From: Escherichia phage PhiR12_3
Direction: 5' to 3' (one strand)
Sequence record: PV340552.1
DNA length: 61,979 nt
The notes beneath the pieces were generated by a model, which searched no databases, had not been told where the DNA came from, and worked only from the letters and a program-made list of their open reading frames with translations. Position numbers and translations under genes: made by a program. The stretch's first letter is position 1. Each line of letters starts with the position of its first letter. Positions 3,276-4,289 of this stretch are shown here, piece by piece.

Positions 3276-3947
3276 TCAGAGGCTTAAGGTGAAGCCTTTT
3301 CGGGAATTTCGATCTGACAGTCTTGAAATATCCTGTAGCGTGCGGCGCATTTCTTCCGTCAGATGTTTGAAGGCGTTAAATTCAGCAACAGCGGCATCGA
3401 CGTTATAGCCCTTGCTGTGTAGCTCGTTGAGGATGCGCATAGTTGGGCTTGGCATATCGAAGAGCACAGAAACGTCCAGGTTAAGAGTTTTTCGATCAAC
3501 ATAGCTCATCATGGAGTAGGGGTGATGTTCAGAAAACCACGAGAGAGGGTAGTTGATAGATAGTGTTGATTCTGGAAGCTGAAGTTGTTCTGGGATTTTT
3601 TGACTGAAATAGCAGTCTTCCAGTTTTTCGAATACCTCCCACGCCCGATCGGTTTCGAGCATTTTTGCGTGACGGGCTGCGCCGCGTTCTGTCCAGAGGA
3701 TGAGGGAGCGGGCATTTTTACCAACTAACCCGATTGTTTCGGGTCTGTTCTTAAACTCGCGTAATTCGTTTTTTTCAATTTTAAAGTAATGCTTTCCGGG
3801 CATGAATCGCGTCGTGTTGTTCAGAAAGTTATCAGAAATGTTTTTGATTTTTGTTCCGTAAAGGTGAGCCAACAGTTCAGTAGTAATTACGGGGATCTGG
3901 TTATAGGTAACAGGGGAAAGGTTTTCGACAGAAATTTGAACAGCCAT
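3276..3947 (-). CDS. Phage antirepressor-like protein (ORF6N-like N-domain, KilA-C/ORF6C-like C-domain)
   Basis: 223 aa; N-terminal LAHLYGTK...NTTRFMPGKHYFKIEKNEL; C-terminal about 80 aa nearly identical to C-terminus of 12891..13538; GAGG before ATG 3947. Confidence 0.75.
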   Translation of the reverse strand: MAVQISVENLSPVTYNQIPVITTELLAHLYGTKIKNISDNFLNNTTRFMPGKHYFKIEKNELREFKNRPETIGLVGKNARSLILWTERGAARHAKMLETDRAWEVFEKLEDCYFSQKIPEQLQLPESTLSINYPLSWFSEHHPYSMMSYVDRKTLNLDVSVLFDMPSPTMRILNELHSKGYNVDAAVAEFNAFKHLTEEMRRTLQDISRLSDRNSRKGFTLSL

Positions 3948-4289
3948 AATGACCTCGCGTTTCGATAATTTTTACCTCGCCACCGTCAGGTGCTAATCAT
4001 CGTGGTGGCGAACTGTGCGGGGTTAGCACTACCGGTCGAAACATCCGGCGAGCCTTTCGGCTCCCCCACACAGCCCGCCATAAATCGCGAATGTGACTGT
4101 GCTTAGCGCATAAAAAAACCGCCAGCGCGGTTATGCACCGTTTCGATATCCGGGGTGCTAATCCCGACGCCAGGTTTTGCTGGCGCGTGAGGAATATAGC
4201 CCCGAACACGCGACGTTGTCAAACTGATGGCATTGCAGATCCCTACGCAATGTAACACTATGTGTTATACATTAATAACGGAACAAAAA

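Follow-up and report, generated by a model that had tools for sequence, protein, structure and literature searches.

The window analysed here, i.e. the whole 61,979 nt of Escherichia phage PhiR12_3 (sequence record PV340552.1), likely carries two full antirepressor cassettes of the P1 immI/Gifsy-1 isrK type, each gated by a C4 antisense RNA and relieved by a decoy RNA. The genes they serve, ant1 (3276..3947) and ant2 (12891..13538), both lie on the (−) strand, and the open reading frame (ORF) listing agrees with the coordinates assigned to them in an initial annotation of the window. In each cassette the order of elements, all on the (−) strand, is promoter, a1/b1 leader with terminator, C4, a2/b2, Shine–Dalgarno sequence (SD) and ant. 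The RNA family membership, this architecture, the covariation and the mosaicism described below were observed directly.

On the Rfam evidence, the two leaders are members of curated families, a P1-type C4 together with an IsrK-like decoy leader. The whole window was scanned against Rfam at curated thresholds (cut-offs of 45 bits for C4 and 50 bits for isrK), and both leaders gave gathering-level matches with E-values of 1e-11 to 1e-14, a similarity far above chance. Module 1 opens with a promoter at 4193..4222 (−), in which TTGACA (4222-4217) and TATATT (4198-4193) are separated by an 18-nt spacer and agree with the consensus at 11/12 positions in a promoter scan. The module 2 promoter (13787..13815 (−); TTGACT, 17-nt spacer, TATATT; 10/12) aligns with it. 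Both are, by sequence, near-consensus sigma-70 promoters, and the −35 and −10 hexamers are kept in 45/45 aligned related modules. The IsrK-like/a1-b1 leader of module 1 spans 4112..4186 (−) and matches isrK (RF01394) with 74.3 bits and, at 4147-4199, c4-a1b1 (RF03163) with 47.4 bits; it comprises a 5′ hairpin (4186-4168), a1 UUAGCAC in a hairpin loop (4161-4155), b1 UAUCGAAACG (4148-4139) and an intrinsic terminator found by a terminator scan at 4132-4117 with its U-run. The corresponding leader of module 2 (13705..13780 (−); isrK, 64.8 bits) contains a1 UUAGGAC (13755-13749) and b1 CAAUCGAGG (13740-13732), and the same scan places its intrinsic terminator at 13725-13710 plus U-run. Promoters and terminators thus occupy equivalent positions in both modules, and a leader repeat of 55 nt (4151-4205 and 13745-13799) is 75% identical between them. 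The motifs that had been noticed as common to both leaders are indeed present: ATATAGCCCCGA is the reverse complement of the −10 region (TCGGGGCTATAT) and CTAATCCCGAC that of the a1 hairpin (GTCGGGATTAG).

The C4 antisense RNA of module 1 (4001..4085 (−); RF01695, 75.1 bits, E 7e-13) folds with a minimum free energy of −49.1 kcal/mol into a closing stem and two inner hairpins, with b′ GUUUCGA in the loop of hairpin 2 (4042-4036) and a′ GUGCUAA in the junction (4029-4023). That of module 2 (13593..13680 (−); 78.9 bits, E 9e-14; −43.9 kcal/mol) carries b′ CCUUGAUUG at 13636-13628 and a′ GUCCUAA at 13621-13615. Both matches are full length (model positions 1-87; RF01695 belongs to clan CL00128), and the minimum free energy folds of both RNAs exhibit the Rfam topology of a long closing stem around two hairpins. 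At their 3′ ends the C4 RNAs bear CCACCA/CCGCCA tails on a tRNA-like stem (CCACCA-like in module 1). Only 53-54 nt, with no gene between, separate C4 from ant. The ant1 mRNA leader (3945..4000 (−)) consists of a2 UUAGCAC (3996-3990), GGUGGCGA (3984-3977), b2 UAUCGAAACG (3967-3958), the SD GAGG and the AUG at 3947, and the ant2 mRNA leader (13536..13592 (−)) of a2 UUAGGAC (13588-13582), GCGGUGG (13576-13570) and b2 CAAUCAAGG (13558-13550) over the SD GGAGG, with the AUG at 13538. Permissive Rfam scans of both loci returned no further credible RNA.

In agreement with a conserved fold, compensatory changes on both sides are seen in 9 of the 27 consensus pairs of C4 (10 variants), and 91 loci were recovered from IMG/VR by a pattern that combines the −10 region with the a1 hairpin, so that the leader is conserved in related phages as a structured RNA. 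With C4 and isrK recognized by Rfam in both leaders and covariation across related modules, the suggestion in the initial annotation of a common structured leader with antisense control is borne out; it captured the common structure and overlooked that the recognition sequences differ.

These differences are systematic. The a boxes read UUAGCAC in module 1 and UUAGGAC in module 2, and the b boxes UCGAAACG and CAAUCAAGG, respectively. In module 1, a′ GUGCUAA is complementary to a1 and a2 (both UUAGCAC, a2 starting 4 nt past C4), and b′ GUUUCGA to b1 and b2 (both UAUCGAAACG), b2 being placed directly ahead of the SD. In module 2, a′ GUCCUAA pairs with UUAGGAC, and b′ CCUUGAUUG pairs with CAAUCGAGG (b1) and with CAAUCAAGG (b2), which overlaps GGAGG. 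The contiguous C4–target pairing amounts in both modules to 7 nt for a and 7.5-9 nt for b. Pairing was scored only between the loop and junction segments of C4 and the target boxes; RNAduplex runs of whole C4 against the leaders were set aside as uninformative because C4 gets unfolded. On this score the cognate pairs reach 14.5 and 16, and the cross-pairings between the two cassettes of the window 8.5 and 9.5. Judged by these sequences, the cassettes are alike in architecture and not in specificity, and their leaders are not interchangeable; as a and b differ between the cassettes, each C4 would control its own ant only.

The same pattern extends to related modules. The 91 IMG/VR loci reduce to 36 distinct leaders in 8 recognition classes, comprising four a types (GCAC, GGAC, GGAAC and GCCU) and seven b sequences. 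In all 8 classes the matches of a′/b′ to a1/b1 and a2/b2 fall at fixed positions, and the cognate assignment is the sole best among 40,320 permutations, for the upstream and for the downstream targets. In every class b2 abuts or overlaps the SD or the AUG. The conserved segment that follows a2 (GGUGGCGA, GCGGUGG or GGUGGUGA) covaries with the 3′ strand of the C4 closing stem, to which it is complementary, and might fold into an alternative hairpin that exposes a2. A covarying variant in the O104:H4 phage phiON-2011 has a different a and the same b as class II. All 6 of the 6 loci with two C4 genes, the window and the prophage of E. coli SCU-104 included, combine two different classes (a′ and/or b′ differ). 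In the IMG/VR contigs with two C4 genes, the spacing ranges from 1.6 to 8.5 kb. The ant1 locus of SCU-104 (15860..16140 (+)) carries a UUGAGAC with a′ GUCUCAA, and b AUCAACC with b′ UGGUUGAU, so that both a and b differ. As the SCU-104 prophage is near-identical to the window and yet has another class at this locus, classes are exchanged among close relatives.

The proteins under this control are supported by their domain and family assignments as antirepressor-type paralogues that share a C-terminal domain behind unlike KilA-N-superfamily N-termini. Ant1 (223 aa) has an ORF6N domain at aa 12-96 (Pfam E 2e-20) and Ant2 (215 aa) a Rha domain (Phage_pRha, aa 21-106; E 7e-29), as the initial annotation had proposed, and each continues into the shared C-terminal domain (aa ∼134-223 in Ant1). 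The common C-terminus proposed for both genes is likewise present: 73/90 of the C-terminal residues are identical, with an invariant run of 43 aa (SVLFDMPSPTMRILNELHSKGYNVDAAVAEFNAFKHLTEEMRR), and BLASTP of Ant1 against Ant2 gives E=1e-59. Both proteins thereby follow the antirepressor domain plan of a KilA-N-superfamily N-terminal domain and a C-terminal partner domain (Pfam, PHROG). PHROGs assign them to anti-repressor or regulator families, Ant1 to PHROG 1760 (anti-repressor; E 4e-112) and Ant2 to PHROG 995 (E 5e-105). The shared C-terminus matched no Pfam family; alone it corresponds to PHROG 17980, a 77-aa stand-alone protein family of unknown function. A protein identical to Ant1 is present in NCBI under the name ‘ORF6N domain-containing protein’, and several E. 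coli genomes contain the ant2 locus with 100% DNA identity, labelled there as ‘Rha family phage regulatory protein’. An intrinsic terminator, found by the terminator scan as an 8-bp stem followed by a T-run, lies 3′ of ant1 (3244..3264 (−)), and a homologous hairpin follows ant2.

The C-terminal domain is rare. As a homology query its 90 aa recovered just 12 proteins, most of them partial, and an exhaustive HMMER search of 1.84 billion representatives gave 25 clusters at E<=1e-3, in which the N-termini are Rha, KilA-N, ORF6N, P22_AR_N and Bro-N; AntA is also seen in phiON-2011. The domain was found at 219 places in 104 phage records, i.e. two or three copies per phage. At the DNA level it corresponds to a direct repeat, not assigned to a strand, with copies at 3325..3558 and 12940..13173 that are 9615 bp apart. 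The initial annotation correctly recognized the repeat and its orientation, and overstated its extent: in place of about 250 bp of near-identical DNA, the copies span 234 nt at 87% identity, and near-identity is confined to a 125-nt core (3467->3343 vs 13082->12958, i.e. 3343-3467 and 12958-13082), which has 3 mismatches and uninterrupted matches of 71 and 44 nt. Copy 2 also holds the mosaic crossover region relative to phiON-2011, which has three paralogues with the shared C-terminus, behind AntA, ORF6N and Rha, its Rha gene being preceded by a C4/isrK leader.

Sequence comparison indicates that Ant1 and Ant2 are recombinants, with crossovers within the conserved C-terminal core, a repeated recombination joint. 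The ant2 gene equals phiON-2011 Rha (100%) as far as the core and then the antB1 tail and downstream DNA (95-100%), and ant1 equals the N-half of phiON-2011 antB1 and then the C-terminus of antA. In the protein alignment two variable blocks flank the invariant core and have recombined in all combinations, and in hundreds of contigs P22_AR_C is fused to an identical copy of the ant1 ORF6N half, giving the phi24B-type Ant. The proteins are mosaics of swappable N-terminal KilA-N-superfamily domains (ORF6N, Rha) on one narrowly distributed C-terminal domain. Repeated use of the core as a recombination joint supports the general idea of repeat-mediated recombination put forward in the initial annotation. 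The specific proposal of a deletion between the copies is plausible in principle, given the perfect runs of 71 and 44 nt and the past crossovers inside the repeat; the predicted 9.6-kb junction is, however, absent from the 5,426 complete E. coli genomes searched, in which a synthetic junction query found no match over >=80% of its length.

Two further leaders of phiON-2011 are of another kind. Those of antA and antB1 (4689-4778 and 12985-13068 (−)) match sRNA-Xcc1 (RF02221; 65 and 80 bits) instead of C4. The layout of sRNA-Xcc1 resembles that of C4, with a closing stem, two hairpins, a junction and a 3′ CACC, and its target ACUUCAAAG occurs twice, once in the loop of a leader hairpin and once beside the SD. 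Functionally, sRNA-Xcc1 seems to be the counterpart of C4, although Rfam keeps it outside the C4 clan.

We propose the following mechanism. Each cassette would be transcribed constitutively from its own sigma-70 promoter, and most transcription would end in the decoy leader, the terminated transcripts constituting IsrK-like RNAs of ∼77 nt. Read-through would yield the tRNA-like, three-way C4 RNA together with a2/b2 and the ant mRNA, from which C4 is probably released by RNase P, by analogy with P1. Pairing of C4 with a2/b2, through its single-stranded a′ in the junction and b′ in the loop of hairpin 2, would stop Ant translation, while the a1/b1 copy, as a free short RNA or in cis, would compete for C4, so that the decoy:C4 ratio decides whether Ant gets made. 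Once made, Ant would inactivate a CI-type repressor, for which the candidate in the window is the 237-aa product of 14930..15643 (−), labelled LexA family protein in SCU-104. Judged only by its position, the C-terminal domain may have a role in binding that repressor. With two such cassettes, the lysogen would possess two separate secondary-immunity specificities.

Several points weigh against this proposal. Every functional step for this element (processing, the translational block, decoy action and repressor binding) is drawn by analogy, and antirepressor activity is putative for ORF6N and Rha proteins with this C-terminus. In module 2 the c4-a1b1 match (19.9 bits) falls under the cut-off; a1 and b1 are nonetheless there and complementary. 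AlphaFold, supplied with a 21-sequence alignment, models ORF6N with a predicted local distance difference test score of 77-88, and its score of ∼30 for the C-terminal domain makes that part unreliable. No conserved small ORF joins C4 to ant in these modules, as the C4-internal ORF has 16-31 codons or reads through, depending on the class. The P4 and N15 relatives work through transcription termination, so the controlled step may differ. For Gifsy-1, moreover, the authors invoke alternative cis structures and not titration of processed C4 (PMC4825925).

An orf45/icd-like coupling ORF was considered and rejected because its length and frame change with class. The region 13506..13676 (−), with C4 RNA and the a2/b2 leader translated in frame with ant2, matches Pfam Phage_ASH (PF10554, profile positions 49-106) with 32.3 bits against a cut-off of 26, and the longer mechanical ORF of ant2, which extends up to 13676, crosses the C4 RNA; the credible start is the ATG at 13538 with its SD GGAGG. 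In SCU-104 and phiON-2011 the PGAP/GenBank start of the Rha gene is placed inside C4. Since the C4-internal frame varies by class, the ‘Ash family’ or ‘orf45’ frame may be largely a translated RNA gene. Annotation problems of two kinds are thus exposed, i.e. gene starts within C4 RNA and a Pfam ‘Ash’ family that matches a translated RNA gene.

Among the alternatives, the one that survives best is that control is transcriptional, as in P4 CI RNA or N15 CA RNA: pairing of C4 with nascent a1/b1 would favour a stop of transcription at the IsrK terminator, and pairing with a2/b2 would cause polarity, the whole forming an autogenous attenuator. We regard this as possible, though doubtful. An intrinsic terminator stands directly after b1 in both modules of the window and in all related modules, a1/b1 covary with C4 as tightly as a2/b2, and the possibility was raised for STnc1160 by the Gifsy-1 authors (PMC4825925). 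In the same study, however, constitutive STnc1160 left IsrK-mediated growth arrest unreduced, and even more pronounced (PMC4825925), and the position of b2 at the SD or AUG in every class points to translation as the target; the two modes are compatible.

It is also conceivable, though we consider it unlikely, that Ant1 and Ant2 are not antirepressors but DNA-binding transcription regulators or host-directed toxins silenced by the RNA lock. The folds of ORF6N, Rha and KilA-N bind DNA, growth is inhibited by several members of the family, regulator or toxin roles exist for Rha, Roi and KilA-type proteins, the proteins go under varied database names (‘anti-termination protein’, ‘regulatory protein’), and the C-terminal domain carries no functional assignment. 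Against this, antirepressors (P1 Ant, Gifsy-1 AnrP) are what the C4/IsrK cassettes studied to date regulate, PHROG labels the families anti-repressor, and the phi24B Ant, which has the same N-half and leader, is tied by its authors to induction efficiency (PMC3064807).

A cis-antisense RNA of the P22 sar type, transcribed from the opposite strand over the ant ribosome-binding site, is highly improbable. One weak promoter-like site on the (+) strand (TTGAGA-18-CATAAT, 13512-13541) is aimed antisense into the ant2 leader, but such sites occur at chance frequency (2 found vs 1.5 expected) and module 1 has no counterpart, whereas every conserved element is on the ant strand and Rfam assigns these elements to C4/isrK; no sar-type Rfam match and no arc or mnt genes were found. 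The comparison with P22 ant/sar made in the initial annotation is not supported: regulation here belongs to a C4-type RNA that is transcribed together with ant from the same strand and has duplicated target boxes, and no opposite-strand promoter is conserved. Just as hard to sustain is the notion that the leader similarity is a passive outcome of recent cassette duplication or recombination in an RNA without regulatory role, for although the cassettes share ancestry and the region is highly mosaic in these phages, the leaders are only ∼75% identical and yet retain their structure through compensatory changes and their three-way complementarity with different sequences, a pattern that neutral decay would have destroyed.

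Antirepressors decide prophage escape from repression, and in Shiga-toxin (Stx) phages escape also releases toxin. RNA locks of different specificity before two or three antirepressors per phage in this medically important group therefore present a testable route to phage–phage cross-talk and to SOS-independent induction. A bolder extension of the C4-gated cassette model, which we consider speculative and rather improbable, is an RNA-based combinatorial code in which the a/b classes (at least nine) govern the secondary immunity and the cross-talk of co-resident and superinfecting Stx-type phages and act as an OR gate for induction. A two-cassette lysogen would then silence incoming antirepressors of two classes. 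Conversely, an incoming phage of the same class would bring a short IsrK-like decoy that titrates the resident C4, so that the resident antirepressor is unlocked and the prophage induced. Several RNA ‘keys’ would all lead to one repressor, since the paralogues have a single C-terminal effector domain in common.

By sequence the window belongs to the lambdoid prophages, specifically to those of the argW-integrating, Stx2a-phage-like type, and is stx-negative. It is 99.9% identical over 14 kb to the SCU-104 prophage, which lies beside a tRNA-Arg gene and next to dsdC, and its first 16 kb are ∼96% identical to the argW-type Stx2a phages VT2phi_272, Stx2a_F765, PA2, PA8 and ArgO145, in which two antirepressors are annotated; two or three such paralogues are usual in phages of this type. 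Both cassettes are located in the early-left region, in the same direction as int-proximal transcription. The window contains no stx genes and, by ARAGORN, no tRNA genes. The position of stx and tRNA genes in relatives is here taken by an N6-methyltransferase-like gene (22172-24133), a large ORF (24193-25287) and a NanS-like esterase gene (25898-27871), their roles judged from the translations alone, and the element has the look of a Stx2a-phage relative without stx. In the Q/late-promoter region Rfam reports a sok antitoxin RNA (20993..21167 (+), 118 bits) and STnc100 (25474..25690 (+), 149 bits). A 21-nt tandem repeat of ∼28 copies (21445..22100), which encodes ATSDQRP repeats in one frame, sits between the sok-like element and a gene for a 653-aa restriction–modification-type methyltransferase.

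Closer to the cassettes, the region 4227..4973 (+) begins with a RelE/ParE-family toxin gene divergent from module 1; its ORF at 4227-4544 shifts frame before ∼4640, so that the gene is apparently frameshifted, whereas related E. coli prophages have an intact copy. The helix-turn-helix antitoxin gene that follows at 4653-4973 (+) is itself intact in the window. Between cI and module 2 there is a remnant of a BsuBI/PstI-family restriction endonuclease gene (14398..14700 (−)), at a position where phiON-2011 and other E. coli prophages have a full restriction–modification pair. In the region ∼13816..14270 (−), ∼400 nt upstream of the module 2 promoter, there is a PL-like promoter (TTTACA-17-TATATT) accompanied by lambda-like operator half-sites ATCACCGC; the interval between the two promoters holds neither a credible ORF nor an N-like gene, and gives no Rfam match. 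PL transcripts would read into the ant2 cassette.

Among known systems, the closest in logic is immI of P1/P7, whose operon, reportedly described by Citron and Schuster in 1990, is said to have the order a1-b1, c4, a2-b2, icd, ant1/2. In P1, C4 pairing also brings Rho-dependent polarity. Like immI, the cassettes of the window have a same-strand, co-transcribed C4 with a′/b′, targets duplicated upstream and at the downstream ribosome-binding site, a putative antirepressor under control, and different, compensating recognition sequences between cassettes (heteroimmunity). Unlike immI, they have no icd between C4 and ant, so that the order c4-icd-ant, with ant translation coupled to icd, is not found, an intrinsic terminator follows b1, and there are two cassettes per genome; no repressor operator was noted at their promoters, though no search aimed at one was made. 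They reside in an integrated lambdoid prophage whose repressor is of the CI/LexA type and not P1 C1, and their Ant N-termini are ORF6N or Rha joined to an uncatalogued C-terminal domain. P1 C4 blocks icd/ant expression (PMC8198154; PMC12197685), and the passage of PMC11143913 that cites Hartmann 1995 gives the P1 C4 precursor as an RNase P substrate.

In Salmonella Gifsy-1, PisrK drives isrK-orf45-anrP, and read-through of the IsrK terminator generates the antirepressor mRNA (Hershko-Shalev et al. 2016, PMC4825925). The position of C4 is occupied there, downstream of IsrK, by a processed stable RNA, STnc1160; translation of anrP increases ∼140-fold when IsrK is provided in trans (PMC4825925). 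The window shares with Gifsy-1 the setting of a lambdoid prophage, the series (predicted in the window) of constitutive promoter, 77-nt terminated IsrK, processed RNA and antirepressor-like gene, and a short RNA that has sequence in common with the downstream target. It differs in that translation of anrP is coupled to orf45, whose AUGA end overlaps anrP, whereas the orf45-equivalent frame of the window ends 50 nt early (module 1) or fuses in frame (module 2), and in that IsrJ does not follow. Hfq binding by IsrK and trans-activation of the downstream antirepressor are known for Gifsy-1 only (PMC4825925). A search for LexA boxes (CTGT-N8-ACAG) found four, none of them near either cassette, and Gifsy-type LexA control of ant is therefore not indicated.

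The P4 CI and N15 CA RNAs are comparable in that a small, tRNA-like RNase P substrate is processed from its own operon leader and has pairing repeats on both sides; they differ in acting by premature transcription termination, in replication or anti-immunity operons of other gene content, and the scan of the window gave no Rfam match to their families. With P22 ant/sar the cassettes have in common an antirepressor (putative in the window) that would be silenced in the lysogen by a small RNA at its ribosome-binding site, whereas sar comes from the opposite strand of the ant leader and P22 ant is also under Arc and Mnt, neither of which is in the window. Domain shuffling among KilA-N, Bro-N, ORF6N, Rha, AntA and P22_AR_N phage regulators was reportedly laid out by Iyer, Koonin and Aravind in 2002; the proteins of the window, too, swap N-terminal DNA-binding modules over a common C-terminus, and differ from that network in a C-terminal module that is rare and without a Pfam family. 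In phi24B, a class-I leader 99% identical to module 1 precedes the ant gene in the nin region, and Ant was proposed to promote efficient prophage induction (PMC3064807). The literature searched contains no paper that ties Stx-phage antirepressors to C4/IsrK, nor does it describe these cassettes in Stx-type phages, several specificities per genome, or the uncatalogued C-terminal module as a recombination joint. The control logic itself is already known from P1/P7 and Gifsy-1: the cassettes are a largely ordinary example of it, and their biology obeys the rules set by those systems.

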